Shown here: piece by piece, positions 5,505-41,152 of the stretch | Position numbering within the stretch: the first letter of the stretch is position 1 | How the letters are laid out: each line of letters begins with the position of its first letter | Origin: an uncultured Acidobacteriota bacterium | Lineage (GTDB): Bacteria; Acidobacteriota; Vicinamibacteria; Vicinamibacterales; 2-12-FULL-66-21 | Assembly (NCBI GenBank): GCA_963748295.1 | Contig: CAVVIH010000008.1 | Location: 244,438 to 308,437, forward strand | Direction of reading: 5' to 3' | Length of the DNA: 64,000 nt | The notes under the pieces: model-generated | Told to the model about the DNA's origin: nothing | The model's database searches: none | The model's input: only the letters and a program-made list of their open reading frames with translations | Program-made: the position numbers and the translations under genes

Positions 5505-5507
5505 CCG

Positions 5508-7083: not shown

Positions 7084-7096
7084 AGGGTGCCAGCGC

Positions 7097-9229
7097 ATGC
7101 GCATCGCCTTCGCTCTCGCCTCGCTCGCCGCCGCGCTCTCGGCGCTGGCCTTCCAGGGCGCGGGCCCGCAGCTCTCGGGCTTCTCCGCGCGGGGCGCGGC
7201 GACCTACCTGGAGGTCGAGAAGCGGTTCCTCGCGCTGCCTGACGCGGAGCGGATCCGGCAGGCGCACCTCTATCTGGCCGATCAGCCGCACATGGCCGGC
7301 ACACCGCGCGACCGCGAGCTGGCCGAATGGACGCGCGACCAGTTTCAGCAGTACGGGCTCGAGGACGTGCAGATCACGACGCACGAGGTCCTGCTTCCGT
7401 GGCCCGAAGAGATCAGCGTCGAGATGACCGCGCCCAAGGCGTGGCGCGCCGCGATGCGTGAAGAGCCCGTCGCCGGGGATAAGTACTCGCAGATGCCACC
7501 GGCAGCGCTCGGGCTGCCGTATCACGCATACGCGGCGTCCGGTGAAGTGACGGCGCCGGTCGTGTACGTGGGCAGCGGGAATCCGGCCGACTACGATCGC
7601 CTCGCCGCCGAGGGCATCGACGTCAAAGGCAAGATCGCGCTGGTCCGCTATTCGGTGCCCTACAGCTATCGCGGCTTCAAGGCGTTGACCGCGCAGCAGC
7701 GTGGCGTGGCGGGGCTCCTGATTTATTCGGATCCGGCTGACGACGGGTTCGCCAAGGGCAAGGTCTATCCAGAGGGTCCGTGGGGACCTGCGAGCCACAT
7801 CCAGCGCGGCGGGATCGTCTTCGACTTCATGGTGCCCGGCGATCCGCTGACACCTGGCTGGGCATCGCTCCCCGGCGCCCGGCGTATCGCCCGCGACGAG
7901 GCGATCTCGCTGCCGAAGATCATCAGCGCGCCGCTCTCGTACGCCGACGCCCGCGTCATCCTCGAAGCGATGGGCGGACCCGAAGCGCCGAAGGAATGGA
8001 AAGGGGCGCTGCCGATCACCTATCGCATGGGCGGCCAGGCGACGCTGCGCATGCGCGTCCGATCGGACGACGCGATTCGTCCCGTGTGGACGGTAACCGG
8101 AAAGATCACCGGGCGCGACGAGCCGGATCGCGAGGTCATCGTCGGCAACCATCGCGACGCCTGGATTTTCGGCGGCGTCGATCCGTCCAGTGGGTCCGCT
8201 GCGCTGATGGAGCTCGCGCGTACGCTGGGTTCGCTGAAGGCGGGCGGCTGGCGGCCGCGGCGCACCATCGTGTTTGCCAGCTGGGACGCCGAAGAGTTCA
8301 CGTTGACGACGTCGACGGAGTGGGGCGAACAGCACGCGGATGCGCTGCGCGAGCGCGCGGTCGCCTACCTGAACGTCGACAGCGCGGCGTCCGGACCGAA
8401 CTTCACGGCAAGCGCGGTGCCGGCGTTGAACGACGTGCTCGCGCAGACCGCCCAGGCAGTCCGCGATCCGGTGTCGGGAGCGTCGATTGCCGCCGCCGTT
8501 CGCGATCGCCGCACCCGCGAGCGCGGCTCGCTTCCGACCGGCGCGAGCGGCGAGCTGGTCGAAAACCGTCTCGGCAGCGGCTCGGACTACACGGTGTTCC
8601 TGAATCATCTCGGGATCCCGGTGGCGGATCTGTCGTTCGACGGACCGTACGGCGTCTACCACTCGATGTACGACAACCACAACTGGGTGGCGACGATCGG
8701 CGATCCGGGATTCCGTTACCACGTCACGATGGTGCAGTTCTGGGGCGCGCTGGCGATGAGGCTCGCGGAATCCGAGATCGTGCCGCTGGACTATGCGCCT
8801 TATGCGAAGACCATCCTCACCTTCCTCGACGAAATCGAGCGCCGCTGGACGCCGCGCGACCGTGGGCCGCTGAACGACGCCAGGCAGGCGGCGACCGAAC
8901 TTGGCGCCGCCGCCGCGGCGGCAAACGACGCGCGCCGCTCGGCCCTGGAGAACGGGGACGCGGGCCGGATTGCCGCCATCAATCGCGCGTTCATCCAAAC
9001 GGAGCGGGCGTTCCTTCATCCCGCCGGAATCCCGGGTCGTCCCTGGTACCGACATCTGATCTACGCGCCCAAGCACACTTACGCACCAGAGTTGCTGCCC
9101 GGGGTGGCCGAGGCAATCGACGCGCGCGCCGGGGACGAACAGATAACGGCGCAGCTCCGGGCGCTGGCCGCCGCGATCCGGCGCGCTGCCGCCTCACTCG
9201 CGCCCAGTTCAGCCGTTCATCCCCAGTAA
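7097..9229 (+). CDS. M28-family metallopeptidase with PA domain and transferrin-receptor-like dimerisation domain (glutamate carboxypeptidase II-like)
   Basis: An internal ATG at 7097 in ORF 6905..9229 follows GAGGG and gives the signal peptide MRIAFALASLAAALSALAF. The protein has a PA-domain segment (GKIALVRYSVPYSYRGFKA), M28 metal-site segments (NHRDAWIFGGVDPSSG, ASWDAEEF, GSGSDYTVF) and a helical C-terminal domain. Confidence 0.85.
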   Translation: MRIAFALASLAAALSALAFQGAGPQLSGFSARGAATYLEVEKRFLALPDAERIRQAHLYLADQPHMAGTPRDRELAEWTRDQFQQYGLEDVQITTHEVLLPWPEEISVEMTAPKAWRAAMREEPVAGDKYSQMPPAALGLPYHAYAASGEVTAPVVYVGSGNPADYDRLAAEGIDVKGKIALVRYSVPYSYRGFKALTAQQRGVAGLLIYSDPADDGFAKGKVYPEGPWGPASHIQRGGIVFDFMVPGDPLTPGWASLPGARRIARDEAISLPKIISAPLSYADARVILEAMGGPEAPKEWKGALPITYRMGGQATLRMRVRSDDAIRPVWTVTGKITGRDEPDREVIVGNHRDAWIFGGVDPSSGSAALMELARTLGSLKAGGWRPRRTIVFASWDAEEFTLTTSTEWGEQHADALRERAVAYLNVDSAASGPNFTASAVPALNDVLAQTAQAVRDPVSGASIAAAVRDRRTRERGSLPTGASGELVENRLGSGSDYTVFLNHLGIPVADLSFDGPYGVYHSMYDNHNWVATIGDPGFRYHVTMVQFWGALAMRLAESEIVPLDYAPYAKTILTFLDEIERRWTPRDRGPLNDARQAATELGAAAAAANDARRSALENGDAGRIAAINRAFIQTERAFLHPAGIPGRPWYRHLIYAPKHTYAPELLPGVAEAIDARAGDEQITAQLRALAAAIRRAAASLAPSSAVHPQ

Positions 9230-13110: not shown

Positions 13111-15878
13111 ATGCAGAAGACCATCGTCCTCGCAGCCGGCTTTTCGCTCCTCATCGGCGCCGCGATTGCCGCGCAGGATCAGCAGCCGCCGACGTTCCGT
13201 ACGACCGTCGATCTCGTTCCGGTCGACGTCAGCATCCTCGATCGCACGGGCCGTCCGCTTCAGGGCCTCGAGGCGAAGGATTTCGTGCTCACCGTCGACG
13301 GCACGCCGCGCCGCGTCGTATCGGCCCAATACATCTCCTCGGTCCGCGACGCCGGACCGGCGCCCGCCACGCCCAGTCACTACAGCACCAATACGAGCGC
13401 GGTAGGCGGACGCATGATCATGATTGCCGTCGACCAGGCGAACATCGGCGCCGGACGCGGCCGCCTGGCGATGGAATCCGCGCGCAAGTTCGTCCAGCGC
13501 CTGTCCCGGCCGACCGCGTCGGCCTCGTGACGCTGCCGGGCGCCGGGCCGCAGATCGACTTCACCGCGAATCACGCCCTCGTGCACGCGATGCTCGGCCG
13601 CATCGTCGGGCAGGAGACCGGCTTCCAGGGCGCGTACCGCATCGGCATGCAGGAAGCGACCGACATCAATCGCGGCAACGCGCTGGTGCTCGGCGAGGTC
13701 GTCAACCGCGAGTGCGCGGGCCTGCGGGGCGTGGAGCTGGAGCTGTGCCGGCGCCAGATCACGACCGACGCGATGACGATGGTGACGCTCGGACGCGAAC
13801 GCGCGCGCAACTCGATGGCCGCGCTGAAGCAGCTGATCGACCGGATGGCGCTCACGCCGTCCCTGAAGACGATCATCTACGTCTCGGAAGGGCTCCTCAT
13901 CGATCGCGAGTTCTCGGACGTGACGTGGCTCGGCCCCGCCGCATCGCGCGCGCAGGTCGTCCTCTACGTCCTCCAGCTCGAAGCGCCGATGTTCGACGCG
14001 TCAATCGCGCGGCCGTCGCCGACCGCCAGCCAGGACAGGGCGCTCGCCGAGGAAGGCCTGGGCATGCTCGCCGGCATGACCCGCGGCACCGTGCTGCGCG
14101 TCGTCAGCAGCGCGGACACGGTATTCGAGCGGCTCGGGCTCGAGCTGTCGGGCTACTACCTTCTCAGCTTCGAACCCGAAGGCACCGACCGCGACGGCAA
14201 GGCGCACAAAATCGTCGTCAGCGTGCCGGCGCAGAAGGACGTCCTGATCCGAGCCCGCCGCGAGTTCGTGGTCAGCGCCGCGACGATGCGGACGGCGGAG
14301 GATCAACTGGCGGAGACGCTGCGCGCACCCTTGTTGTCGAGCGACATCGGATTGAAGTTGTCGACCTACACGCTGCGTGATGGTGGCAGCCAGAAGCTGC
14401 GCATTCTTCTCGCCGCCGAAATCGACCGGTCGAGAAACCCAACCGAGAAGATCTCGCTCGCCTACGTGTTGATGGATGCCAAGGGCGCGGTCATCGGCAG
14501 CCTGCTGGAGAGGGATGTGTCAACGCCGATTCGCGCGGCGTCACGGACGCAGGCGTTCGTCAGCACGGTCGGCGCCGACGCGCCGGGGATGTACACGCTG
14601 AAGGTCGCGGTGGTGGACGGCCGCGGCACCCGCGGCAGCGTGGAACACGTCTTCCGCGCACAACTGGCCAGCGCGGGGCAGGTGCGCGTGACCGATCTGC
14701 TGATCGGCGAGCAATCCGCGTCAGCCGGCCGTGTGCTGCCAACCGTTGTGGGCGAATTCTCGACCGACGTGCTGCACACATACGTGGAGCTCTATTCGGA
14801 CGCGGAAGAGGCGCTGAAGAATACGACCGTCGAGATGGAGGTTTCCTCGAGCGAAGAGGGGCGCACGATCGATCACGCGGCCGCGAGACTGGTGGCGCTG
14901 CCGGGCGACGGACCTGGCAAGCGCAGCGCCGAAGCGGTCGTGCCGATCGCGCTGCTGCCCCCAGGCGACTACGTGGCTCGCGCCGTCGTCAGCATCGGCG
15001 GCAAGCGTGCCGGCACAGTCGTGCGGCCTTTCACCATTTCAACAAACCGGACAGCGACGGAGCCCGCTCCGCTGACCGCGGCTACGTCGTCACGTCCGCT
15101 GATCGTCTTGAATTCGCGCATCGACTCGTTCGATCGCAAGGCCGTGCTGGCGCCCGACGTAGTCGGCTTCTTCATGGAGCGCATGAACTTCGGTCCGGGT
15201 GGGGCGCCGAACGCGCCTGTCGCGATCGAGCACGCCCGCGCCGGACGTTTCGAGGAAGCGATCGCCGCGCTCGAGGGAATCCAGAACAAGGGGGTGGCTA
15301 CGGCGTTCCTGACCGGCTTGTCGCTCTACGCCAAAGGGCAGCTCGACCCCGCCGCGAACAAGTTCCGCGAGGCGCTGAAGCTCGATGGGGAGTTCTTCCC
15401 GGCGGCGTTCTATCTTGGCTCGTGCTACGCCGCCGGGGGCCGGGACAAGCAGGCGGTCGGCGCGTGGCAAACGTCGCTCGTAACAGAAAGCGACGCCCCA
15501 TTCATCTACACGCTGCTGGCCGATGGGTTTTTCCGCCTCGGAGAACTGGTATCCGCCCTCAACATCCTGAAGGAAGCGAACACGCTCTGGCCGCAGAACG
15601 AGCAGGTGCTGCTGCGGCTCGGCACCGCATATGCGGCGGCGGGCAATCCCGCTGACGCACTCGGGATTCTCGAGCCGTATCTCGAACGGAATCCGACCGA
15701 CCATGAGCGGCTGTATGTCGCCCTGCAGGCACTCTATCGGGCCAAAGCCGCGGGCAAGTCGATCAAGTCTCCCGACGAGGACAAGGCGCTGTTCAACCGC
15801 TATGCGGCCGCATACAAGGCCGCAAAGGGCCCTCACGCCGAGATGGTCGAGGTCTGGCGCAAGGCGGTGTCGAAGTAA
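13111..15878 (+). pseudogene. VWFA-related Acidobacterial-domain protein with C-terminal TPR repeats; one frameshift as sequenced
   Basis: ORF 13093..13530 has a signal peptide MQKTIVLAAGFSLLIGAAIAAQ starting at ATG 13111. It joins ORF 13527..15878 across the C-run at 13505-13507. Adding one C restores ...FVQRLSPADRVGLVTLPGAGPQIDF... The C-terminal roughly 200 aa look TPR-like. Confidence 0.8.
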
Positions 15879-15942
15879 CGGACGCCGGGCGGTTTTACCC
15901 CCGGCCCGGCACACCTGTCTAACCCTTCGACAAAGGGGTTTT

Positions 15943-17583
15943 ATGCTTCGAGCCGTGTGCGCGTGCGCCGTCATCAGCGCCGTAGTCGTCACAGCCGCCG
16001 AAAAGCCGAGGTCCGCCGTTCCGGCGGACGCGGACGACCGCGCAATTGCGCACGTCCTGAACCGGCTTGGCTTCGGCCCGGCCCCCGGGGATCTGGAGCG
16101 CGTGCGCGGCATCGGGCTCGCCGCATACATCGAGCAGCAGCTGCACCCCGAACGCATCGCCGACGAGGGAATGGCGGCACGGCTCGAAGGCCTGCAGACG
16201 ATCGACAAGAGCGCGCGCCAGCTCGCGCAGGAGTACTACGTGCCCGCGCAGATGGAGCGTATCGCGCGGCAGAAGCAGGCGGCGCAGGACCCAGCGATGA
16301 CCACGCCGCCTCCGGCCGCTGCGCCGCCGACCGACGCCCAGCGAGGCGAACGGCAGATGATGGTGGACCTGTCCCACCAGAAGATCCTTCGCGCCGCTTA
16401 CAGCGAGCGCCAGCTCGAGGAAGTGCTCGTCGACTTCTGGTTCAACCACTTCAACGTGTTCGCCGGGAAGGGTGTCACGCGAATCTATCTTTCCGAGTAC
16501 GAGCGGGAGGCGATCAGGCCGCGCGTGCTCGGAAAGTTCGGGGATCTTCTGCAGGCCGTCGCCGAGAGCCCGGCGATGCTGTTCTACCTCGATAACTGGC
16601 AGAGCGCCGCGCCTGCGGAAGCGGCGATGACCGGCTCGCAGGCGCCCGGTCGCGGCCGCCCCGGCGCTCGACGCCGCGGCGGGATCAACCAGCCGCGCAC
16701 GCTCGCCGACATGCCGCAGGCAGCGCAGAACCGCCGCCCGCGGGGGCTCAACGAGAACTACGCGCGAGAGCTGATGGAGCTCCACACGCTGGGCGTCGAC
16801 GGCGGTTACACCCAGAAGGACGTGCAGGAGGTCGCGCGCGCGTTCACGGGGTGGACGATCGCCAACCCGCGCCAGGGCGGCAGCTTCACGTTCGAGCCGC
16901 GGATGCACGACAACGGCGAGAAGCTCGTGCTCGGCCGGAAGATCAAGGCCGGCGGCAAGAAGGACGGCGAGCAGGTGCTCGACATCCTTGCCTCCCATCC
17001 GTCCACCGCACGGCACATCGCGCTGAAGCTCGCACGGCGCTTCGTTTCGGACAATCCGCCCGCCGAACTCGTCGAGCGCGCGGCACAGCGCTTCCGCGAC
17101 ACGGACGGCGACATCCGCGAGGTGGTGCGCACGATCGTCACGTCGCCCGAATTCTTCGCGGCGGCGTCGTATCGCGCGAAGATCAAGACCCCCTTCGAAT
17201 TCGTCGTCAGCGCAGTCCGCGCGGCAAGAGTCGAGACCGTCAGCGTGCTGCCGTTCGTTCAGTCGCTGCGCGACCTCGGCATGCCGCTCTACATGTGCCA
17301 GCCGCCGACCGGCTACTCGGACAAGGCCGAAGCCTGGGTGAACACGGGCGCGCTCCTCAATCGCATGAACTTCGCGGTGGCCCTCACGAGCGGCCGGATG
17401 CGCGGTGGCCGCGGCCAGGCATCGCGCGCGGCGGATCGCGCGCAGGTTTCGTCCGACACGATCGCGAGCGCGGTCATGGCCGGCGACGTGTCTGAATCGA
17501 CGTCGGCAACCGTCGCAAAGGCGACGACCGCGCCACAGGCCGTCGCGTTGCTGCTCGGCTCACCGGAATTCCAGAAAAGGTAG
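15943..17583 (+). CDS. DUF1800 domain protein
   Basis: An internal ATG at 15943 in ORF 15631..17583 gives MLRAVCACAVISAVVV. Family-typical segments are HVLNRLGFGPAPGD, FWFNHFNV and NENYARELMELHTLGV. Confidence 0.85.
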   Translation: MLRAVCACAVISAVVVTAAEKPRSAVPADADDRAIAHVLNRLGFGPAPGDLERVRGIGLAAYIEQQLHPERIADEGMAARLEGLQTIDKSARQLAQEYYVPAQMERIARQKQAAQDPAMTTPPPAAAPPTDAQRGERQMMVDLSHQKILRAAYSERQLEEVLVDFWFNHFNVFAGKGVTRIYLSEYEREAIRPRVLGKFGDLLQAVAESPAMLFYLDNWQSAAPAEAAMTGSQAPGRGRPGARRRGGINQPRTLADMPQAAQNRRPRGLNENYARELMELHTLGVDGGYTQKDVQEVARAFTGWTIANPRQGGSFTFEPRMHDNGEKLVLGRKIKAGGKKDGEQVLDILASHPSTARHIALKLARRFVSDNPPAELVERAAQRFRDTDGDIREVVRTIVTSPEFFAAASYRAKIKTPFEFVVSAVRAARVETVSVLPFVQSLRDLGMPLYMCQPPTGYSDKAEAWVNTGALLNRMNFAVALTSGRMRGGRGQASRAADRAQVSSDTIASAVMAGDVSESTSATVAKATTAPQAVALLLGSPEFQKR

Positions 17584-17589
17584 GCGGCC

Positions 17590-18825
17590 ATGATCTCCCG
17601 ACGAGTGTTCCTGAAGAACGGCGGACTGGCGCTCGTCAGCCTCGGCTTCGCGCCGGAGTTCCTCGCGCGCACGGTGGCCGCGTCTCCGTCGAGACGCCGC
17701 GTCCTCGTCACGGTGTTTCAGCGGGGCGCCGTCGACGGACTCAACATGATCGTCCCGTTCGGCGACAGAGCGTATTACGCCGCGCGGCCGAGCATCGCCA
17801 TCGCGCGGCCGGGATCCGGTCCTGACGCCGCGCTCGATCTCGACGGCTTCTTCGGGATGCATCCGCGCCTCGCGCCGCTGAAGGCTTTCTTCGAGGCAAA
17901 GCAGCTGGCCATCGTCCATGCGAGCGGCTCGCATGACGAAACGCGCTCGCACTTCGACGCGCAGGACTACATGGAAAGCGCGACGCCGGGCGTCAAGAGC
18001 ACACCGGACGGATGGCTGAACCGCTATCTGCACGCGAAGGAGCACGAAAAGGCGACGCCGTTCAGAGCCGTGGCGCTCGCGCCGCAGCTGCCCCGCGCGC
18101 TGCAGGGACTGGCGCCGGCGCTCGCAATCGGGCAGATCAGCCAGTTCGGCATCCGCGCCGCGGGATCGTCCGACATGGTCCAGTCGTCGTTCGAAGCCGA
18201 GTACGCCGCGGCGGCGCAGGGCGTGCTGCACCAGACGGGCCGGGATGCGTTCGACGCGATTCGGATGCTCAAATCCGCGGATCCAGCGCGCTACGCGCCC
18301 GAAAACGGTGCGGAGTATCCTCGCTCCGCTTACGGAGACGCGTTGAAGCAGATCGCGCAGCTGATCAAGGCGGACGTCGGGCTCGAGGTCGCCTTCGCCG
18401 AATCCGGCAACTGGGACCACCACGTCAACGAGGGCGCGGCCGTCGGCCTGCTCGCCAACCGCCTCGACGACTTCGCCCGCGGCATCGCCGCGCTCGTCCG
18501 CGATCTCGGCGATCGCATGGCGGATGTCGTCATCATGACGATGTCGGAGTTCGGCCGTGCGGTGGCGGAGAACGGCAATCGCGGAACCGACCACGGCCAC
18601 GGCAACGCGATGATGGTGCTCGGCGGAAACGTGCGCGGCGGCAAGGTCTATGGCAGATGGCCCGGGCTTGCGCCCGAACAGCGATACGAAGGGCGCGACC
18701 TCGCGGTGACGACCGATTTCCGTGCAGTGTTCGCCGAGGTGGTCAAGGCGCACATGGGACTGCAAAACACGCAGCCCGTGTTCCCGGGCTTCAAGATGCC
18801 GGACGGGCTCGGCCTGATCGGCTGA
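17590..18825 (+). CDS. DUF1501 domain protein (sulfatase/alkaline-phosphatase-like fold) with a Tat-type signal
   Basis: The N-terminus is MISRRVFLKNGGLALVSLGF. Typical segments are GNWDHH and MSEFGRAVAENGNRGTDHGHG. The gene starts 7 nt after the DUF1800 gene, the usual pairing for these two families. Confidence 0.85.
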   Translation: MISRRVFLKNGGLALVSLGFAPEFLARTVAASPSRRRVLVTVFQRGAVDGLNMIVPFGDRAYYAARPSIAIARPGSGPDAALDLDGFFGMHPRLAPLKAFFEAKQLAIVHASGSHDETRSHFDAQDYMESATPGVKSTPDGWLNRYLHAKEHEKATPFRAVALAPQLPRALQGLAPALAIGQISQFGIRAAGSSDMVQSSFEAEYAAAAQGVLHQTGRDAFDAIRMLKSADPARYAPENGAEYPRSAYGDALKQIAQLIKADVGLEVAFAESGNWDHHVNEGAAVGLLANRLDDFARGIAALVRDLGDRMADVVIMTMSEFGRAVAENGNRGTDHGHGNAMMVLGGNVRGGKVYGRWPGLAPEQRYEGRDLAVTTDFRAVFAEVVKAHMGLQNTQPVFPGFKMPDGLGLIG

Positions 18826-18875
18826 ACTCCTGGTCCCCGGTCCCCGGCCCCCGGGCCCTGCGGTACACTCACCGA

Positions 18876-19997
18876 GTGCAAATCACCGACCTTCGCACGC
18901 CGTGCGTGCTCGTCGATCATCAGAGAGTCGAACGCAACATCGAACGGATGCAGGCCGCGGCGGATGCGCGCGGCATTCTGCTGCGGCCTCATGCGAAAAC
19001 CCACAAGTGCCCGGATCTCGCGCGCGTTCAGATTGGCCGCGGTGCGGTCGGCATCTGCTGCGCCAAACTCGGCGAGGCGGAGGTCTTCGCCGACGCGGGG
19101 ATCTCCGACATCCGTCTTCCCTATCCGCTGAACCCCGTCAACGCGGACCGTGTGCTGCGTCTCCTGGATCGCACGCACATTTCCTTCATCGTCGATCACA
19201 TGGACGTCGCGCGCGGCTGGTCCGAGGCGATGACGGCAGCCGGCCGCGAGGTCGACGTGCTCGTGAAGGTCGACGTCGGCTTCCACCGCTGCGGCATCGA
19301 TCCGCACGCGCCGGACGCCGCGGACTTCGTCGCCGGTGTTGCCGCGCTGCCGGGCCTGAACTTTCGCGGGCTGCTCAGCCACGCCGGCCATGCGTATGGC
19401 GCCAGCTCCGAGAGCGAAGCCGCCGCGTTCGCCGCCACCGAGGCGCAGATGCTGACCACGCTCGCAGAGGAAGTCAGGCGCAAGGGGGTCGAGGTTGCAG
19501 AATTGAGCGTTGGCGCGACGCCGACGGTGAGGTTCAGCCTCGAGCTGTCCGGCCTCACCGAGGTCAGGCCCGGGAACTATATCTACTTCGATCGCACGCA
19601 GGTCGGATTGGGTTCGGCCTCCTGGGACGACCTCGCGCTGACCGTGCTGGCCAGGGTGGTCGGACGGCCCGCCGCCGACCGAGTGATTCTCGACTGCGGC
19701 AGCAAGACGCTGACGACGGACCTCGCGCGCGGGTTCGGCAGCCATGCCGGCTACGGCGTGGTGTTCAAGAGCCTGGACGAAACGGCGCCCGACGACACGC
19801 TGGCGATCGAGCGGCTCTCAGAAGAGCATGCGAACGTGCGGGTGACGGGACAGTCGCCGCTGAAGCCCGGCGACCTCGTGCGCGTCGCGCCCAATCACTC
19901 GTGCGTCGTCTCGAACCTGGTGGACAGCATCTGGCTCGTCAACGAGCGCGATGTCGTCGACCGGCTCGAGATCGCGGCGCGCGGTCGCATCGCGTAG
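18876..19997 (+). CDS. D-TA family PLP-dependent enzyme (D-threonine aldolase / D-serine dehydratase-like, alanine-racemase fold)
   Basis: A GTG at 18876 within ORF 18012..19997 starts the homologous part (VQITDLRTPCVLVDHQRVERNIERM...). It has the PLP-lysine motif LRPHAKTHK. The upstream 288 aa of the tracked ORF are Arg-rich and overlap the DUF1501 gene out of frame. Confidence 0.8.
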   Translation: MQITDLRTPCVLVDHQRVERNIERMQAAADARGILLRPHAKTHKCPDLARVQIGRGAVGICCAKLGEAEVFADAGISDIRLPYPLNPVNADRVLRLLDRTHISFIVDHMDVARGWSEAMTAAGREVDVLVKVDVGFHRCGIDPHAPDAADFVAGVAALPGLNFRGLLSHAGHAYGASSESEAAAFAATEAQMLTTLAEEVRRKGVEVAELSVGATPTVRFSLELSGLTEVRPGNYIYFDRTQVGLGSASWDDLALTVLARVVGRPAADRVILDCGSKTLTTDLARGFGSHAGYGVVFKSLDETAPDDTLAIERLSEEHANVRVTGQSPLKPGDLVRVAPNHSCVVSNLVDSIWLVNERDVVDRLEIAARGRIA

Positions 19998-20012
19998 TAG
20001 AATGGGCGCCTC

Positions 20013-20306
20013 ATGGCACCGACGAAGGAACTCCCCGGCGAAGCGCTCGGACTGGTTGAAACGCGCGGCCTCGTCGGCATGATCGAAGCCGCCGATGCGA
20101 TGGTCAAGGCGGCAAACGTCGTGTTCGTCGGGTGGCAGAAGGTCGACGCCGGGCTGGTGACCGCCATCGTGCGCGGCGATGTCGCCTCGGTGAAAGCGGC
20201 GACCGACGCCGGCGCCGCCGCGGCGCGGCGCGTCGGAGAGCTCGTCGGAGTACACGTGATCCCGCGTCCCGCCGACGGTCTCGACAAAATCTTCCCGATC
20301 GGCTGA
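20013..20306 (+). CDS. Bacterial microcompartment shell protein, BMC-H (Pfam00936, PduA/EutM/CcmK type)
   Basis: The 97-aa ORF reads [76 protein letters not shown], collinear with canonical BMC-H hexamer proteins. It lies 15 nt downstream of the D-TA gene on the same strand. Confidence 0.9.
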
Positions 20307-20786
20307 TCAACCCTTTCGCTTCTTGCTCTTCCGCCGCTTGCGTCCAACGTGGGTCCGGGCCGTGAGCGTCCGCATCGACGGTTCCGTCCCCACCACGAGA
20401 AGCGGCTGCGACGGGGCGCGCAGCAGGTTGTAGAACTCTCCCTGCGCGGTCCTCGCGTAGATCTCCGAGCCGTCCGTCAGCAGCGTCAGCGTGCCGGCGC
20501 CGCCAATCGCGTCGAACAGCCTGATGCCGAACCGCGTTTTCAACGTCTCGAGGAGTTGTCGGATGCGCCCGACGCTCAACCCTTGACGGCGCAGATCGGC
20601 CAGCACCATCAGCTCCAGCAGATCGACCGGCGTGTAGCGCCGCTCGGTGAATCCGCCGGCCGCCGTGCGTTTGGATGACACCGCCGACTGAAACAGGCGG
20701 CGGGCATCCCACCACTGCAGCTGGCGCGCCGTGAGGCCGGTGAGCGCGGCGACCTCGCGGGCGCTGTAGGTGTTCTTCAGTTCCAC
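20307..20786 (-). CDS. MerR-family HTH transcriptional regulator with polybasic C-terminal tail
   Basis: The N-terminal HTH is YSAREVAALTGLTARQLQWWDARRL. The C-terminus is GRKRRKSKKRKG. The gene starts 2 nt after the PCD stop. Confidence 0.8.
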   Translation of the reverse strand: MELKNTYSAREVAALTGLTARQLQWWDARRLFQSAVSSKRTAAGGFTERRYTPVDLLELMVLADLRRQGLSVGRIRQLLETLKTRFGIRLFDAIGGAGTLTLLTDGSEIYARTAQGEFYNLLRAPSQPLLVVGTEPSMRTLTARTHVGRKRRKSKKRKG

Positions 20787-20787
20787 G

Positions 20788-21084
20788 TCAGGCGGCCCCA
20801 GCCGCCTTCGCGAGCTCGGTTGCCTTCCCCGCGCCGTCGAAATCCTTGTCGGTGAGCCCGCCTGCGCTGTGGGTGCTGTAGGTCAGCGTCACGCGCTTGT
20901 AGTTCACCAGGATATCGGGATGATGGTCGGCCGCCTCCGCCTCGAATCCGAGCCGGACAATAAAGCTGACCGCGTCCGGAAACCCCTTGAACGTGAACTT
21001 CCGGCGGATTGCCGCCCCGTCGAGCTCCCAGCCGGGCAGGGCTGCCAGCCGCGCCTTCGCCTCGGTCTCGGCAATCGTTTTCAT
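20788..21084 (-). CDS. 4a-hydroxytetrahydrobiopterin dehydratase (pterin-4a-carbinolamine dehydratase, PCD)
   Basis: This 98-aa ORF matches the complete canonical motif [DE]-x3-H-H-P-x5-[YW]-x9-H-x8-D, read as E-AAD-HHP-DILVN-Y-KRVTLTYST-H-SAGGLTDK-D. Confidence 0.9.
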   Translation of the reverse strand: MKTIAETEAKARLAALPGWELDGAAIRRKFTFKGFPDAVSFIVRLGFEAEAADHHPDILVNYKRVTLTYSTHSAGGLTDKDFDGAGKATELAKAAGAA

Positions 21085-21126
21085 ATCGCAAGAATATGTC
21101 AGGCGCCCACCTTCTGCGCCTGTCTC

Positions 21127-21242
21127 GCCGAAGCCTCTGGCGGAGGCGGACCGAAAGCCACTGGCGAAGGCGGAGCCTGCCGCGCCGAAGCCACTGGCGA
21201 AGGCGGAGCCTGCCGCGCCGAAGCCACTGGCGAAGGCGGGCC
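21127..21242. repeat. 33-bp tandem repeat, about 3.5 copies
   Basis: The unit gaagccactggcgaaggcggagcctgccgcgcc is exact at 21187-21219. A near-exact copy precedes it (starting about 21153), a truncated copy follows at 21220-21242, and a degenerate leading copy lies at 21127-21152. The repeat is intergenic between PCD (-) and TetR (+). Confidence 0.8.
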
Positions 21243-21271
21243 GAACAGTGTTAGACTACTGAACACTGTTC
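21243..21271. promoter_or_regulatory. Perfect 10-bp inverted repeat, candidate TetR operator
   Basis: GAACAGTGTT (21243-21252), a 9-nt spacer, then AACACTGTTC (21262-21271). It ends 26 nt upstream of the TetR GTG start at 21297. Confidence 0.5.
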
Positions 21272-21296
21272 AATTCTGCTGTTTGCGGAGGGTTTA

Positions 21297-21950
21297 GTGG
21301 GGGTCAAGGAACGTCAGGAACGCGAGCGGGAAGCGGTCGCGCGGAGCATTCTGGATGCGGCCACGGACCTGTTCGTCGCGGAGGGGTATCACCACGTCTC
21401 GATCCGCAAGATCGCGGAGCGCATCGAATACAGTCCCGGGTCGATCTACAGCTATTTCCCGAGCAAGGACGACATCTTCTTCGCGCTCGCCGAAGAGGGC
21501 TTCCGCATCCTCTGCACTCCCGACCCGGCCTGCGCCGGGCAGGCCGATCCGCTCCAGGCGATCCGGGGCGCCTTCTGGCGGGTCTATGAGTTCAGCAAGT
21601 CGCACCCGCAGTACTACGCGCTGATGTTCGTGGACCGCAACGTCCCGAAAATCAGCCGCGACTGGCAGCGGTTCGGCTTCGTCAAGGAGATGCGCGCCCA
21701 GATCGGGATGGTGATCCAGCGCGCGGTCGAGGAAGGGATCTTCCCGCGCGACACGCACCCCGACGCGGTGTTCCGCATTCTGATCACCGCAATCCACGGC
21801 GCCGCCGTCGGCCGCCTCAGCGATCGATCGCAGCCGGGCGAGGACTCGGACGCCCTCGCGCGCGACACGCTCGAGGCCGCCCTGACCGGGCTGCGCACAG
21901 GTTTTTCGAGGACGTTTCATCCCGTGCCCTGCACACAGGTCGAGGACTAG
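21297..21950 (+). CDS. TetR/AcrR-family transcriptional regulator
   Basis: A 217-aa ORF with a GTG start. The N-terminal HTH is ILDAATDLFVAEGYHHVSIRKIAERIEYSPGSIYSYFPSKDDIF. Confidence 0.85.
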   Translation: MGVKERQEREREAVARSILDAATDLFVAEGYHHVSIRKIAERIEYSPGSIYSYFPSKDDIFFALAEEGFRILCTPDPACAGQADPLQAIRGAFWRVYEFSKSHPQYYALMFVDRNVPKISRDWQRFGFVKEMRAQIGMVIQRAVEEGIFPRDTHPDAVFRILITAIHGAAVGRLSDRSQPGEDSDALARDTLEAALTGLRTGFSRTFHPVPCTQVED

Positions 21951-21974
21951 TTGGCATCAGTGAGGTCGTTTCAT

Positions 21975-23195
21975 ATGAATCGCGTTCGGACTCATCTTCT
22001 GGCCGCGGCCGCGATCGGCATCGCGGCGATTGGCACCGCGGCGTGTTCCACTCAGGCGAAGGGCTCCGCGGATCCCGCGGCGTCGGCGCCGGAACCGCTC
22101 GCCATCACGACGGCCGTCGTCGAATCGCGGCCGCTCGATCGCTTTCTGCAGGTGACCGGCTCGCTGACCGCCGACGAACAGGCGGAAGTCAGCGCCGAAA
22201 CCGCCGGCCGCGTCGTCGCGACGCCGGTCGAGCGCGGCACCAGGGTCACCGAAGGAACGCTGCTCGTTCGCATCTCGGCATCGGAAACCTCGGCGCAGCT
22301 CGAGGAGGCCGAGGCGAATGCGGCGCAGATCGAAGCGCGGCTCGGGCTCGCGCCGGGAGCGCCATTCAACCCCGACGCGGTTCCCGATGTGATGAACGCC
22401 AAGGCGAACCTTCAGCTCGCCGAGGCGGAGTTCAACCGCATCAAGTCGCTGCTCGACCAGAAGGTCGTCTCGCAAAGCGAGTACGACCAGCGGCTCACGC
22501 AGGTCGAAGCGGCGCGCCAGCAGCACCAGGCGGCGCGGAACGCGGCCGAACAGTCGTACCGCTCGCTGCAGGCGGCGCGCGCGCGGATCACGCTGGCCAA
22601 GAAATCCGTCGCCGACACGCTCGTGCGGGCGCCGTTCGCGGGCGTCGTCGCGGAGCGGCTGGTGAGCGCCGGCGACTACGTCTCGCGCGGCACGAAAGTC
22701 GCCACCGTCGTCCGGGTGGATCCGCTTCGCGTCGAGCTGACGATTCCCGAGCAGTCCGTTTCCCTCGTCAAGATGGGACAGCTCGTTCGACTGAGCGTCG
22801 ACGCGTATCCCGGCAAGGAGTTCACGGCGACGATCCGATTCGTTTCGCCGTCGCTGCGATCCGATCAGCGTGCGCTGACCGTCGAAGCGGTCACCGCGAA
22901 CCCGGATGGGCTGCTGAAGCCGGGACTTTTCGCAACCGCGCTCATCAAGCAGACGATCTCGGCGCCCGGCCTGCTGGTGCCTGCCACGGCGGTTGAAACC
23001 GTCGCCGGGACCTCGCGGGTGTTCGTCGTCAAGAACGACCGCATCGAGGAACGCATCGTGACGCTTGGCGAGAAGGTCGATTCACTCGTCGAGCTGACCA
23101 GCGGCGTCGCCGTCGACGAGGTCGTCGCCGCCGATCCGAGAGGCCGCCTGGTCGACGGGCGCGTGGTCAAGTCAGAAGTACGAAGTCAGAAGTAA
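21975..23195 (+). CDS. Efflux RND transporter periplasmic adaptor subunit (MFP)
   Basis: ATG at 21975 within ORF 21951..23195 gives [24 protein letters not shown], which is lipoprotein-like. The protein has coiled-coil, lipoyl and beta-barrel segments typical of HlyD/AcrA-like adaptors. Confidence 0.85.
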
Positions 23196-23215
23196 GAAGT
23201 AACGGAAAAAACGTC

Positions 23216-26200
23216 ATGCAATGGCTCGCTTCCATATCCGTCCGTCGTCCGGTTTTCGCGACGGTCATCACGCTGTCCCTCACGGTCATCGGCGCGTTCG
23301 CGTTCTCGCGGCTCGGCCTCGACCGCTTTCCGAAGGTGGACTTCCCCACCGTCGTCGTTACCACGGTCCTTCCGGGCGCGGCGCCTGAAGAGATCGAAAC
23401 CGAGGTCACCGACAAGATCGAGGAAGCCGTCAACACCATCAGCGGGATCGACGAGCTGCGATCGAATTCGTCGGAAGGTGTCTCCCAGGTCATCATCTCG
23501 TTCCTGCTCGAGAAGGACGGCGACATCGCGGCGCAGGAAGTTCGCGATCGTGTGAATCGCGTGCTGCCGCTGCTGCCGCGGACGATCGAACAGCCCCAAG
23601 TGGAGAGGTTCGACCCGGATTCCGCTCCGGTGCTGACGCTGGCGGTCTCGGCCGACAAGCCGGTACGCGACATCACCGAGTACGCGGACAAGACGCTTCG
23701 GCGTCAGCTCGAGAGCGTCAGCGGCGTCGGCCAGGTGGTGGTCGTCGGCGGCCGCTCCCGCCAGATCAACATCGACCTCGATGCGGCGCGCCTTCGTGCG
23801 TACAACCTCACGGTGACCGACGTCACGCGCGCGCTGCAGACGCAGAACTCGGAGATTCCGGGCGGACGCGTCGAGCAGGGCGGCACGTCGATGACGCTGC
23901 GCACGCGCGGACGCGTCGAGTCGGTCGCCGCGTTCGGCGACATCGTCGTCGAGGCGCGCCAAGGGCATCCGATTCTCCTCAAGGACGTCGCGCGCATCGA
24001 AGACGGCATGGCCCGGCCGGAGCGAAGCGCCAACCTGAATGGCGAGCCGACGGTGCTGCTCACCGTCCGCCGGCAGTCGGGTACGAACACCGTGCAGGTG
24101 GTGGACTCAGTCAAGGAGCGGCTCGCCGACGTCGCGCCGCTGGCGCCGCCAGGCTACGAGATTCGCGTCGTCCGCGATCTCTCCGAGTTCATCAAGGCGT
24201 CGATCGAGAGCGTCGAAGAGCATCTCATCGTCGGCTCGATCCTCGCGTCGGTCGTGGTTTTCGTGTTCCTCTGGAACTTCCGCTCGACCATCATCGCGGC
24301 GATCGCAATCCCGACGTCGATCATCGCGACGTTCGGCCTCATCTGGTACCAGGGCTTCACGCTCAACTCGATGACCATGCTCGCGCTGACGCTGGCGGTC
24401 GGCATCGTCATCGACGACGCCATCGTCGTGCTGGAGAACATCTACCGGTTCGTCGAGGAAAAAGGACAGACGCCGGCGCAGGCGGCGATCGAGGCGACGC
24501 GCGAAATCGGCCTCGCGGTCATGGCGACGACGCTGTCGCTCGTGGCGATCTTCGTGCCGGTCGGCTTCATGGGAGGGATCGTCGGACGGTTCATGACGAG
24601 CTTCGGCTTCACGATGTCGTTTGCGATTCTGGTGTCGCTCCTCGTCAGCTTCACGCTGACGCCGATGCTGTGCTCGAAGTGGATCAAACCGAGGTCCGCT
24701 GAGGGCAACAACAAGCATTCGTCGAGGGAATCCCGGCTCTTCAGCGCAATGGATTCCGGCTACACGGCAATCCTGCGGTGGGCGCTCGGGCACCGGCTGA
24801 TCATGGCCGGCGTTGCCGCGCTCGTGCTGCTCAGCAGCGTTCCGCTGTTCATGCTGGCGAACAAGAACTTCCTGCCGAACGACGACCAGTCGGAGTTCGA
24901 GATCGGGCTGCGGGCGCCTGAAGGCACGAGCCTCGAGGCGACCGAGATCATTTCGAACCGCATCGCGAGCCGTGTCCAGCAGCTCGACGGGGTGGAATAC
25001 ACACTCGTCAGCGTCGCCGACGATCCCGCGAAGACCCAGAACATCGGGACGATTTACGTTCGCCTGAAGCCGGTGGAGAGCCGCAGCAAGGATCAATTCG
25101 AGCTGATGAACGAAGTTCGGACCGAAATCCTGTCGAAGACTGAGCTCGAGAACCTGCGGACCGGCGTGCGGGCGGTCGCCACGATCGGCGGCGGCGGCAA
25201 CCAGAACTCCGAGATTCAGTTCACGATCAGCGGTCCGGACCTCCGGCTGCTGGAGCAGTATGCGAACAACGTGATCGCCGAGGCGCGCAAGGAGCCTGGC
25301 GTCGTGGACCTCGACACGTCGCTCAACGTCGGCAAGCCGGAGCTGTCGGTGCACATCGATCGTCTCAAGGCGGCCGATCTGGGGGTGAAGGTTTCGGATG
25401 CCGCGGATGCGCTGCGCCTGCTCGTCGGCGGCGATCAGGTGACGACCTACAACGAGGCTGGCGAGCAGTACGAAGTGCACGTCCGCGCGCTCGAGGGAGA
25501 CCGGCGGACTGCGGAAGCGATCCGCCAGCTCACCGTGCCGTCGACCAGGCTTGGGAGCGTACCGCTCGAGAACCTCGCCAGCATGACGCGCGGGACCGCG
25601 CCATCGGAGATCAACCGGCTGAACCGCCAGCGGCAGGTCACCGTGTTCGCCGGTCTGCTGCAGGGCTTCTCGCAGGTGCCGGCGATGGACGCCATGCAGC
25701 GGGCGGCCGACAATCTCGGGATGGGTCCGGGATACTCGACCCGGTTCGCCGGACGGTCACGCGAGCTCGGCCGTGCCGCGGCGAACTTCCTGATCGCCTT
25801 CGGCTTGTCGCTCGTATTCATGTACTTGATCCTGGCTGCGCAGTTCGAATCGTGGATACATCCGATCACGATCCTGCTGTCGCTGCCGCTGACATTGCCG
25901 TTCGCGCTGCTGTCCATCATCATCACCGGACAGTCGCTGAACATCTTTTCCGCACTGGGGTTGCTCGTGTTGTTTGGAGTTGTGAAGAAGAACTCGATTC
26001 TGCAGATCGATCATGCGAATCAGCTTCGGGAGCAAGGGATGGAACGAGATGCCGCAATTCTACAGGCCAGCCGCGATCGGCTCCGGCCAATCCTCATGAC
26101 CACGCTCGCGTTCGTCGCCGGGATGGTGCCGCTCGTGCTGTCGAGCGGCGTCGGATCGGCAACCAACCGCGCGATCGGGTTCGTCATCATCGGCGGCCAG

Positions 26201-27916
26201 TCGCTGGTGCTGCTGCTGACGCTGGTCGCCACGCCGGTCGCCTACTCGCTGCTGGATCAAGCGTCGAAGGTCCGCTTCTGGAGATGGACCCGTTCCCGCC
26301 GGACCGCGGCGGCAACCGCCGCGCTTCTGGCGCTGGTGATCCCGGTCGCGACGGCGAACGCGCAGACGGCAACGGCGCCGGCGGCGCCGCAGCGGCCAGT
26401 TCCGGTCGCTCAGGCGCCTGGCGATCAGGTGGTCCGCATCACGCGTGACGATGCGATCCGGCTGGCAATGGAGAACAATCCGGATCTCGCGGTGAGCCGC
26501 TACGATCCGGCCATCAGTCAGGCGCAGCTCGCCGCCGCACGCGGCGTCTACATGCCGGTCGTGGAGACCTCCGTGCAGCGCAACAGTCAGCTGCAGCCGC
26601 CGACGAATCTCTTCGCCGGAACCGAGGGGCTACAGACCGACATCTGGTCGTCGACTGTCGCGCTCAATCAGCTGATGCCGTGGGGCGGCGGACAATACTC
26701 GGTCGGCTGGGACTCGTCTCGGACCACGACCGACAGCCTGATCTCGAGCTTCGATCCATCCTTGAACTCGCGGCTGTCGCTGGCGTTTTCTCAGCCGCTG
26801 CTGCGCAGTTTCAAAATCGACCCGGCGCGGGCACAGGTCGAGCTCTCGACGCGCAACGTCGAAATCGCCGATACGCGTCTGCGCGAGTCGCAGGTGACGA
26901 CCGGCGCGAGCGCGGAGCAGGGCTACTGGGCCTACGTCGCGGCGCTCGCGCTGCTCGACGTGCAGCAGCGGTCGCTCGATCTGGCGCTCGAGCTCGAGCG
27001 CACGAACCGCGCGCGGGTGGACGTCGGTCAGGCGCCGCCGCTCGACCTGGTCGCGGCGCGCGCCGAAGTGGCGCAGCGCCGCGAGAACCTGATCATCGCG
27101 CGCACCGCCGCCCGTCAGGCCGAGGACAATCTGCGAACGGTCATCTTCGACCCGTCACGCGCCGATTACTGGAACCTCCGGCTCGAACCGGCGGATCGTG
27201 TGCCGGCGGTCAGCCAGGCGCCCGACGTCGATGCTGCCGTGCGGCGCGCGCTCGCCGAGCGGACCGATCTGATTCGCGCGCGCAAGGAGATCCAGAACAC
27301 CGAAACGAACATCACGCTGTCGAAGAACGAGACGCTTCCTGACCTGCGGCTGCAGGCCAATTACCTGACCGACGCCGCCGGCGGCACGCGGCTGCTTCGC
27401 GAGGGCGGCTTCCCTGGAACGATCGTGGGCCAGCAGGTCACCGGCTTCGGCAGCACGCTCGGTCAGCTGCTGAGCGCCGACTTTCCGACCTGGACGCTGG
27501 GGGTGACGTTCAGCTATCCGCTCGGCAACAGCACCGCGGAAGCGAATCTCGCCCGCGCGCGGCTCGAACGCGATCAGGCGAACGCGCGGCTGAAGACGCT
27601 GGAGGTGGGCACCGTGCGTGAAGTGCGCCAGGCCGCGTGGCGCCTCGAGCAGAACCAGCAGCGCATCGAAACGACGCAGCTCGCCCGCGAGCTCGCCGAG
27701 CAGCGGCTCGACGCGGAGCAGAAGCGGTTCGAGGTCGGCATGTCGACGAGCTTCCTCGTGATCCAGGCGCAGCGCGATCTCGCCGTCGCCCGCAACCAGG
27801 AGCTGCTGGCGCTGCTCGACACGCAGTTGTCGGTCGTCAATTTCGAGACCGTGCAGCAGGTGTCCGGGGTCGGCCCGATCCTCGGCGGCGCGCCGGTCGG
27901 CGTCGTGCTGCGGTAA
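23216..27916 (+). CDS. RND efflux permease (AcrB-like, about aa 1-1022) read through into a TolC-like outer membrane factor (about aa 1024-1566), one ORF as sequenced
   Basis: The 1566-aa ORF begins as a typical 12-TM RND permease ([20 protein letters not shown]...). After ...[14 protein letters not shown] it continues as an OMF with its own signal-like segment [23 protein letters not shown] and paired TolC repeats. The junction at 26279-26290 looks like an ATGA stop/start overlap with one extra G (see findings). Confidence 0.85.
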
Positions 27917-29065
27917 GGGTGACGGGCAGGCCTTAAGGCCTGCCTCGTTGTCCGTCCATTCGAATCGCGTGGGGTGGAACGGCTTCGACGCCGCGCCCCA
28001 CGCTCCGTCCAGCACTCCCTCGGCGACCATAGCGGCCGTGATTGGCGCCAGCAGAATGCCATTGCGGTAATGCCCGGTCGCGAACACGACACCCGGCAGC
28101 CGCTCCGAGGGCCCGATGATCGGCAGGCCGTCCGATGACGCCGGGCGAAGCCCGACCCGCGCTTCGCGAAACGTCGACCGCCAGGCGCCGGGAAGCAAGC
28201 CACAGAGCGCATCCAGCAGATCCCGCACACCGGCCGCTGTCGTACGCTCGTCGAATCCGACGTCCTCGACGGTGGCGCCCACGAGGACACTGCCGTTCTC
28301 CCAGGGAACGACGTAGCAGTCGGCACCCCAGATGATCCGCTGCGGCGGCACACCATCCCACTCGATCCGCAGCAGCTGTCCTCGTATCGGCCGGACGGCC
28401 TGCGCCGCGGGCTCGTCGAGTCCCAGCTGCGACAACCAGCTGCCGGCGGCAACGACGACGCGGTCGGCGGTCCACGTCATCCCGTCCTCTGAAACCACCT
28501 CGAGCCTGGATGCGCGTTCGCGGATTCCAACGATGCGGCGCCCGGTCTCGATGTCCGCGCCGTGACGCAGGGCACTCCACGTGAGCGCTTCCGCAAGCTG
28601 CGAAGCCCCAACGTAGCCGTGCGAGCGGATCAGCAGCGCGCCCTGTGTGTCGGTTGGCAACGTCGGCTCGACATCGGGAACGTCCGAGGGTTCGATCCAC
28701 GCGAGCGATGCCTCGTCGGGCAGAAGTCCGGCAGCCGCCTGGAGTCGCGCGGCTTCGTCGCCATCGAGGGCAACTTCAAGAGTGCCGCAGCGCCGGTATT
28801 CGACGCCGACGCCCGCATCCTGCCGCACGCCGGCGATGAATTCATCGAACAAGGCGAGACTGCGGACGGCGAGATCGAGCAATGGGCCGGGCCGCGGCGC
28901 TTCGATGTAGGGCGCCAGGACGCCCGCGGACGCCTGCGTCGCGCCCGCGCCAACACTACGGGCATCGAAGATGCGCACGCGCGCACCGCGCCGCGCGAGC
29001 TGGTGTGCGATTGAGCAGCCGATGATGCCGGCACCCACGATGATGACGTCGGCCGCGTCGCTCAT
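27155..29065 (-). CDS. thiO: Glycine-oxidase (ThiO)-like FAD-dependent oxidoreductase; homology ends near 27940, and the remaining roughly 260 codons are an improbable extension
   Basis: The N-terminus is [27 protein letters not shown] and a ThiO-like [11 protein letters not shown] lies near aa 330. Recognisable sequence ends about aa 370-375 (...[10 protein letters not shown]). The open frame then crosses the hairpin at 27924-27945 and runs 760 nt antisense through the OMF coding region. Confidence 0.7.
27924..27945. terminator. GC-rich hairpin between convergent genes (candidate bidirectional terminator)
   Basis: GGGCAGGCC-TTAA-GGCCTGCCT gives an 8-9 bp stem. It lies 8 nt after the OMF TAA (27914-27916), at the expected 3' end of the ThiO-like gene. 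No clear U-tract follows. Confidence 0.45.
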
Positions 29066-39355: not shown

Positions 39356-39358
39356 CGA

Positions 39359-40561: not shown

Positions 40562-40591
40562 CTTCTGCGGCTTCTCCACACGCACGCGCCA

Positions 40592-41044: not shown

Positions 41045-41064
41045 AATTATGCAGTCAGCATCCC

Positions 41065-41092: not shown

Positions 41093-41112
41093 ACGCGTTA
41101 CAGCTCAACGTG

Positions 41113-41141: not shown

Positions 41142-41152
41142 TACTCGTTCTG

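Follow-up and report, generated by a model that had tools for sequence, protein, structure and literature searches.

Introduction

What does a single microcompartment shell gene do when no other shell gene surrounds it? The question is raised by a 64-kb stretch of DNA from an uncultured soil member of the Vicinamibacterales (Acidobacteriota; contig CAVVIH010000008.1, positions 244,438 to 308,437), which we call the window. Here a gene for a hexamer-forming shell protein of bacterial microcompartments (BMC-H) begins just downstream of a gene for a pyridoxal 5′-phosphate (PLP) enzyme. A first-pass annotation of the sequence had raised the possibility of an unfamiliar organelle, in which an enzyme of the D-threonine aldolase family would generate an aldehyde behind a shell. 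We compared the gene pair with relatives fetched from genomes and metagenomes (loci L001–L165); all coordinates are positions in the window unless a locus is named.

We conclude that the lone shell gene is most likely part of a known system, the ACI metabolosome, rather than of a new organelle. More specifically, we favour the reading, which we hold to be probable though well short of certain, that the window BMC-H is an accessory (satellite) shell paralogue of ACI whose pore is acidic and whose edge is modified, encoded after a cytosolic, dehydratase-type PLP enzyme.

The ACI metabolosome is exclusive to Acidobacteria, mainly of subdivisions 4 and 6 (PMC8217296, Sutter et al. 2021). Its main locus comprises a PF00596 aldolase, a BMC-H, a triplet of pentamer-forming BMC-P proteins and a 2-hydroxyacid dehydrogenase; it has obligate satellites, and a further BMC-H is "occasionally found by itself" (PMC8217296). 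It is a major microcompartment type of soil Acidobacteria, and its substrate and function are not established (PMC8217296).

Shell protein

The open reading frame (ORF) at 20013–20306, called a canonical PF00936 hexamer protein in the first-pass annotation, deserves the name. Its 97-residue product matched PF00936 with an E-value of 6.8e-28 and 96.9 bits (gathering cut-off 24.5), and the whole profile, positions 1–75 of 75, aligned to residues 11–86 as one domain in the non-permuted order. Solved EutM and PduA hexamers matched the window BMC-H at ~1e-33, and identity to PduA was 69%. As in PduA and EutM, the protein consists of a single non-permuted PF00936 domain in which the edge lysine, the arginine of the PRPx motif and the position of the pore loop can all be aligned. 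It differs from both in reading K-V-D-A-G instead of K-I-G-S-G at the pore and PRPA instead of PRPH at the edge, and in bearing a short conserved N-terminal peptide.

These differences are shared by a clade of close relatives, the satellite clade. The K-V-D-A-G loop had already been read from the sequence (20139–20153), and its aspartate is almost universal in the clade: Asp45 occurs in 80 of 81 satellite-clade sequences, whereas glycine occupies the position in 72 of the 77 other BMC-H proteins of the fetched loci, and the loop outside the clade reads K-I-G-A-G-Y. From the alignment we infer an acidic ring of Asp45 side chains around the central pore. At the edge, Ala87 converts PRPH to PRPA in 75/81 clade members, while 75/76 other BMC-H proteins have histidine. 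The PRPH motif of the clade is therefore only partly canonical. We judged the capacity to tile by the edge lysine of the D-x-x-x-K motif together with the arginine of PRPH, and both are kept across the clade (Lys32 in 80/81, Arg85 in 77/81). An N-terminal peptide of 7–9 residues, resembling MAKELPG, is also conserved. No gene of the block is more conserved than BMC-H: over 67 loci its median identity to the window protein is 97%, whereas the enzyme reaches 70%, in keeping with constraint from several partners in assembly.

Soil metagenomes abound in relatives of the window BMC-H. Its 120 best clusters share 64–99% identity with it, the listed clusters by themselves contain thousands of metagenome sequences, and the exact window protein is recorded on dozens of contigs that keep its gene order. 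Among the top "homologues", we set aside P0001–P0004 and P0121 as likely short-read assembly chimeras: they are 128–162 residues long with internally duplicated BMC segments and come from contigs of 0.5–2.9 kb, and P0004 fuses satellite-type with main-type sequence.

Relation to the ACI metabolosome

A scan of species-representative genomes with the window BMC-H (L002–L081) separated two kinds of locus. The first group holds 11 loci: nine share 80–98% identity, L010 has 84% and L021 has 78%. Most by far are labelled Vicinamibacterales or Acidobacteriota, and no pentamer gene was found near them. In most of the remaining loci, at 72–80% identity, BMC-H is followed directly by two or three EutN/CcmL genes. 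These loci, the nearest outside the satellite clade, belong mostly to Vicinamibacterales and other Acidobacteriota, and their Pfam order, Aldolase_II, BMC, three EutN_CcmL and 2-Hacid_dh, is that of the ACI main locus as defined in the catalogue (PMC8217296).

The closest genomic loci (80–98% identity) are from Vicinamibacterales and Acidobacteriota metagenome-assembled genomes (MAGs), and the window BMC-H is 72–80% identical to the main-locus proteins and adjoins them in a neighbour-joining tree. In that tree (89 columns, no support values), the satellite clade is monophyletic and lies beside the ACI main type. The notion of a new, stand-alone microcompartment is not supported, given the kinship to main-locus BMC-H and the lone BMC-H satellites already catalogued (PMC8217296). 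The window shares with ACI a subdivision 6/Vicinamibacterales host and a shell protein related to that of the main locus, and ACI itself is known to have its components, single BMC-H genes among them, spread over several loci. The window differs in three features that are absent from the catalogue text: the PF01168/PF14031 partner, the pore aspartate and the PRPA motif. None of the three is described in the accessible part of the text and supplements of the catalogue (PMC8217296), and our literature search found neither the pairing nor an aspartate pore nor a PRPA motif, and nothing relevant on Vicinamibacter and microcompartments.

The shell gene is, as first reported, solitary within the 64 kb. 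Searches by tblastn with BMC-H, PduA, EutN and CcmL found no second BMC or EutN/CcmL domain in the window (best other match, E 0.6), and none of PF00171, PF06130, PF03319 and PF00596 was found among the 30 window proteins scanned with Pfam. These scans also found no complete metabolosome locus in the window, that is, no BMC-P, aldehyde dehydrogenase (AldDh) or PduL-type phosphotransacylase. The AldDh satellite of ACI, for which PF00171 was the marker in the 30 proteins, could sit elsewhere in the genome. Because the parts of ACI, lone BMC-H genes included, are scattered, a solitary gene of this kind is what one would expect in a genome of the Vicinamibacterales.

An acidic pore also occurs at an ACI satellite locus. 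In two subdivision 4 loci, L053 and L079, an Asp-pore BMC-H lies in the ACI satellite that carries AldDh and BMC-P, so that there an acidic-pore hexamer is physically linked to ACI parts. The order in both (L053:4796–10261 and L079:10001–16066) is BMC-H, AldDh (~600 aa), BMC-P, ACT, DUF711 and a second BMC-H, the ACT domain having been scanned in L053 only. It is this second BMC-H that has the D-A-G pore, together with a normal PRPH.

The contig of L010 (CAYNUO010000015.1) was deposited in a MAG labelled Bifidobacteriaceae. It is 52.9 kb long with 71% G+C, has the Vicinamibacterales-type order BMC-H, MerR, pterin-4a-carbinolamine dehydratase (PCD), ThiO, and is probably mis-binned.

The PLP enzyme

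The gene upstream of BMC-H starts at the first start codon (GTG) after the stop of a DUF1501 gene and encodes 373 residues, of which 13–354 are spanned by Ala_racemase_N (PF01168) and D-ser_dehydrat (PF14031). Its matches in the PDB are 4v15 (1.4e-49, the best), 3anu (3e-42) and 3wqc (6e-41). A profile of the family hardly separates the two types, giving 221 bits to the aldolase and 214 bits to D-threo-3-hydroxyaspartate dehydratase. The enzyme belongs to the D-threonine aldolase/D-serine dehydratase family; the hallmarks of D-threonine aldolase itself are absent.

The active site carries the distinction. D-threonine aldolases conserve His193 and a His347/Asp349 metal site (PMC4401734, the structure paper of 4V15), while the dehydratase and 3LLX have His and Cys as metal ligands and lack His193 (PMC4401734). 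In the window enzyme and its orthologues, the PLP lysine Lys41, Tyr174 and the metal ligands His341 and Cys343 are invariant across 93 rows, and a second alignment agrees. The metal motif reads PNHSC, against PyHaC in 3ANU and PNHAC in 3WQC. At the His193 position the window enzyme has Gly, and the orthologues vary (G in 67, H in 14, A in 7, and others). Cysteine in place of the aspartate ligand, with a variable His193 position, does not agree with D-threonine aldolase (EC 4.1.2.42), whereas the fold, the PLP lysine, the His/Cys ligands and the equivalent of Tyr174 all agree with the D-serine dehydratase type (3ANU, 3WQC, 3LLX).

We regard the enzyme as probably D-serine or beta-hydroxy-D-amino-acid dehydratase-like, as judged from these residues. 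With such an active site, the predicted chemistry is beta-elimination, yielding an oxo-acid and ammonia, rather than aldol cleavage. The His/Cys site, without His193 and the His/Asp signature, gives no support to aldehyde production or to the original rationale for a shell, that the enzyme performs an aldehyde-generating step of the kind that metabolosomes enclose. The label "D-threonine aldolase" is probably wrong for this enzyme subfamily, since its active site is of the dehydratase type.

The window enzyme shares the fold, the PLP lysine, the Tyr174 equivalent and the His/Cys ligands with the zinc-dependent D-serine dehydratase of chicken (3ANU) and the D-threo-3-hydroxyaspartate dehydratase of Delftia (3WQC), but it matches them at only the E-values given above, and none of the members characterised so far is known to have a link with a shell gene. 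With the D-threonine aldolase of Alcaligenes xylosoxidans (4V15), its best match, it shares the fold and metal-assisted PLP chemistry on a beta-hydroxy group, but not the aldolase-specific His193 and Asp ligand.

The enzyme shows no sign of being targeted to a shell. It aligns with 4V15 over residues 6–370, orthologues are of equal length, and neither terminus extends beyond the Pfam span and this alignment far enough to hold an encapsulation peptide. Alignment from end to end with solved homologues leaves no room for one, and the amphipathic helix that might have been sought at the termini has no extension in which to lie.

Gene pair and expression

The spacing reported for the pair is confirmed: the enzyme stop codon (TAG, 19995–19997) and the BMC-H ATG at 20013 are separated by 15 nt. 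This adjacency is kept in relatives. We assembled 80 metagenome loci around enzymes 64–98% identical to that of the window, 74 of them with enough downstream DNA. BMC-H follows within 270 nt in 74/74 and lies on the same strand in 73, with a median gap of ~18 nt. Among 12 loci anchored instead on BMC-H, the enzyme is upstream in 10 (adjacent in 8, split off by one or more inserted genes in 2) and missing in 2 (L010 and L021). Within the block of conserved neighbours, the junction between the enzyme and BMC-H is the most stable link. Two arrangements are unusual: L165 has BMC-H on the strand opposite to the enzyme, and in L152 (4887–5445) two tandem BMC-H genes, which share 80% and 62% identity with that of the window, follow the PLP enzyme gene.

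The association also marks off the enzyme from its relatives. Among 50%-identity representatives its cluster is set off from the rest: other full-length clusters are at most 46% identical, and the two of them that were inspected have no BMC-H nearby. The association therefore defines an enzyme subfamily.

Both genes are preceded by conserved promoter-like boxes. In 60/75 unique orthologue upstream sequences, a TAnnnT box (TACACT or TAGACT in most) ends 5–8 nt before the enzyme start, compared with 0–2/75 at control offsets. At BMC-H, 52/72 unique sequences carry TAGAAT or TAGACT 6–10 nt ahead of the first in-frame start, and this box tracks the start even when the spacer is long. Main-locus BMC-H genes have GGAG-type ribosome-binding sites and such boxes in 0/30. 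Box-to-start spacing of this kind is expected for leaderless transcripts.

The position of its box suggests that the shell gene probably has its own promoter. Co-transcription with the enzyme, proposed as likely at first sight, retains the shared strand and the short spacer in its favour; the conserved box before BMC-H offers another route, which may even be the principal one. A scan between the two genes revealed neither a terminator-like site nor a sigma-70 consensus promoter. An RNA element such as a riboswitch was considered and rejected, since Rfam finds none in 15000–24000.

Comparable boxes stand elsewhere in the window. The genes for PCD and for ThiO (27935–29065) have TAnnnT 6 nt before their predicted starts (TATTCT and TATGAT), so leaderless-type promoters may serve several genes of the organism. 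The spacer between DUF1501 and the enzyme (18826–18875) is hypervariable among strains whose genes are 98–99% identical. In the window it contains the repeat (GGTCCCC) x3.9 at 18832–18858, and in L082 (8817–8863), L085 (8693–8863) and L083 (8606–8863) a GC-rich unit of ~35 nt is present in ~1 to 7 copies. Only its last ~25 nt, with the TACACT box, are constant.

Genomic neighbourhood

The features of the locus are collected in Table 1.

Table 1. Features at and around the BMC-H gene, in window coordinates.
Feature	Position	Strand	Basis
DUF1800 (15631-17583) and DUF1501 (17590-18825), conserved upstream neighbours	15631..18825	+	Pfam
-10-like box TACACT, 6 nt upstream of enzyme GTG; putative leaderless promoter	18864..18869	+	conserved position
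Fold-type III PLP enzyme, D-threonine aldolase/D-serine dehydratase family, 373 aa, GTG start	18876..19997	+	PF01168 + PF14031
-10-like box TAGAAT, directly after enzyme stop, 9 nt before BMC-H ATG; putative promoter	19998..20003	+	conserved position
BMC-H hexamer shell protein, 97 aa, Asp-pore/PRPA satellite clade	20013..20306	+	PF00936
Pore loop K43-V44-D45-A46-G47, equivalent of PduA K37-I38-G39-S40-G41	20139..20153	+	alignment
Edge motif P84-R85-P86-A87, PRPA variant of canonical PRPH	20262..20273	+	clade comparison
MerR-family regulator, convergent, second gene of PCD-MerR unit	20307..20786	-	PF13411
Pterin-4a-carbinolamine dehydratase (PCD)	20788..21084	-	PF01329, NF002017 98 bits

The BMC-H stop codon (TGA, 20304–20306) directly adjoins that of the convergent MerR gene (TCA, 20307–20309); this stop-to-stop contact, TGATCA, was correctly read in the first-pass annotation. 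Downstream, the window continues with MerR, PCD, TetR and an RND pump. MerR lies directly downstream of BMC-H in many but not all relatives, and PCD is syntenic in most loci. Upstream, DUF1800 and DUF1501 are syntenic in L001–L009 and most of L086–L165, with no evident link to the shell gene. The wider syntenic block runs DUF1800, DUF1501, enzyme, BMC-H, (MerR), PCD, (TetR/RND), ThiO, with an M14 peptidase further on.

A catabolic island for D-amino acids was considered and dropped. The nearby "DAO" gene (27935–29065, minus strand) encodes the glycine oxidase ThiO, a housekeeping enzyme, because its 285 bits exceed the equivalog cut-off of 250.8.

Other contents of the window are recorded here for completeness. 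Between the divergent PCD and TetR genes lies a perfect 33-bp tandem repeat (21155–21239; 2.6 copies, 100% matches). The RND gene is a 1566-aa ORF (23216–27916, plus strand) in which an AcrB-type pump (PF00873, residues 5–1013) is fused to an outer-membrane factor (PF02321, best stretch residues 1339–1544); the fusion is continuous in L002, L004, L082 and L084. At 3916–7083 (plus strand), three ORFs (3916–4596, 4448–5806 and 6157–7083) each match parts of FAD amine-oxidase/DAO profiles and could represent duplicated fragments or one gene broken by a frameshift; they adjoin a Rieske oxygenase (918–2399) and a GCV_T-type aminomethyltransferase (2396–3595). Predicted peptidases are plentiful, with M14, M28 and three S9 members (29171–32170, 6905–9229, 48104–52451 and 56709–58757), and there are two amidohydrolases. 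A candidate arginine-biosynthesis cluster at ~37967–47085 was judged by eye from translations.

Discussion

The domain identities, the substitutions typical of the clade, the synteny, the promoter-like boxes and the lack of an extension on the enzyme are observed; from them we infer how a satellite shell protein could be built into ACI shells, and what its pore electrostatics, promoter and metabolic link might be. The satellite BMC-H would have split off, within Vicinamibacterales, as a paralogue from the BMC-H of the ACI main locus, keeping the residues for facet tiling, the edge Lys32 and the Arg85 of PRPx. Asp45 would ring the central pore with six carboxylates and favour the passage of neutral or cationic solutes rather than anions, and Ala87, the His-to-Ala change in PRPH, together with Asn35 would change the hexamer edge. 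The protein would be expressed from its own leaderless-type promoter, possibly with read-through from the upstream gene, and would join ACI shells alongside the main BMC-H, altering their permeability. The PLP enzyme, dehydratase-type and non-encapsulated, would stay in the cytosol, its gene forming with the shell gene a stable pair with separate promoters. A possible functional link is shell remodelling during the use of beta-hydroxy-D-amino acids. A comparable arrangement is offered by CcmK3 and CcmK4, BMC-H paralogues of the beta-carboxysome that are distal, separately regulated and thought to tune shell permeability (PMC8217296). The window protein resembles them as a distal BMC-H paralogue; the organelle and the pore chemistry differ, and CcmK3/CcmK4 have no conserved enzyme neighbour.

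Several observations weigh against this account. The Asp-pore proteins of L053 and L079 fall outside the window clade in the neighbour-joining tree, so the pore aspartate may have arisen twice, by convergence. BMC-P, AldDh and aldolase II are absent from the satellite loci (±10 kb each) as well as from the window. Matching by accession and record name found no contig or genome with both a satellite-type and a main-type BMC-H; the nearest accessions of the two types, MGH9218286 and MGH9143891, are ~74,000 apart and so not from one genome, and this matching is low in power and says little either way. The loss of histidine from PRPH could weaken co-assembly instead of tuning it. The lone "H_marine" BMC-H of the catalogue may not be this clade. 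Finally, a pure shell-paralogue model leaves the perfect adjacency of enzyme and BMC-H unexplained.

That adjacency might be nothing more than history. BMC-H could be an ACI satellite whose place beside the PLP enzyme is inherited gene order, without common function or regulation, which we think unlikely but by no means negligible. The whole block from DUF1800 to ThiO is syntenic over the same loci, in a lineage that generally preserves order, and such general conservation explains part of the stability of the pair. A promoter-like box stands before each of the two genes, there is no encapsulation peptide on the enzyme, the neighbours on either side are unrelated or serve housekeeping (ThiO, PCD), and the clade members at L010 and L021 have no enzyme at all. 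Against mere inheritance, the junction holds in all 74 enzyme-anchored loci while around it MerR is lost, TetR/RND is inserted and the DUF1501–enzyme spacer is hypervariable, and the inspected enzyme clusters at or below 46% identity have no BMC-H nearby.

A further proposal, that the dehydratase-type enzyme works together with the Asp-pore BMC-H as a two-gene unit, seems to us rather unlikely. It comes in two versions. In one, the host genomes would lack both the pentamer and the main locus, and the shell protein would act outside a closed compartment, for instance as an enzyme scaffold or a sheet. In the other, the unit would be a substrate-extension module of ACI, whose acidic pore would admit a cationic or neutral metabolite derived from D-amino acids into the organelle. 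The satellite "EUT modules", EutABC with an EutL-type shell protein, open a second substrate to the HO and SPU microcompartments (PMC8217296). They share with the window a distal locus that pairs one shell protein with an enzyme for an amino compound, and so make a plausible model for substrate extension. The window differs in that its enzyme has no encapsulation peptide and by its predicted chemistry makes no aldehyde, and in having a BMC-H in place of a BMC-T as its shell protein.

A BMC-H that acts alone, in genomes without BMC-P or a main locus, forming cytoplasmic sheets, tubes or a scaffold that possibly organises the PLP enzyme, is in our estimate quite improbable. No other BMC gene was found in the 64 kb or in the ±10-kb flanks of ~90 loci, nor any co-occurrence with a main locus in the low-power matching; the PRPA edge and the conserved N-terminal peptide could reflect different contacts, and the leaderless-type expression signal is independent. 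However, ACI is widespread in the same order with its parts dispersed, lone BMC-H genes among them, the tiling residues Lys32 and Arg85 are conserved, and the co-occurrence tests are too low in power to carry the point. We know of no precedent for a native stand-alone function of BMC-H.

Least credible by far is the idea that, in a metabolosome of a new kind, acetaldehyde is produced behind a BMC-H shell by an encapsulated D-threonine aldolase: the pair is tightly linked and the aldolase 4v15 is the best single PDB match (1.4e-49; 221 bits with the family profile), but the hallmarks are missing (Cys343 instead of Asp, and Gly at a variable His193 position), D-threo-3-hydroxyaspartate dehydratase scores almost as high (214 bits), there is neither an encapsulation peptide nor any BMC-P, AldDh or phosphotransacylase nearby, and our literature search found no link between D-threonine aldolase and microcompartments.

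The satellite ACI paralogue thus remains our preferred reading of the window BMC-H, and it would give the unsolved ACI organelle a second, abundant shell variant, marked by its conserved acidic pore and by the change in its edge motif. Its fixed place beside a dehydratase-type D-amino-acid enzyme would offer a concrete handle on ACI permeability and shell remodelling. The paired leaderless-type boxes may mark a promoter style of a poorly studied phylum. If the pair were in truth an ACI substrate-extension module, it would give a first hint at what serves as substrate in a microcompartment that ranks among the most abundant in soil.

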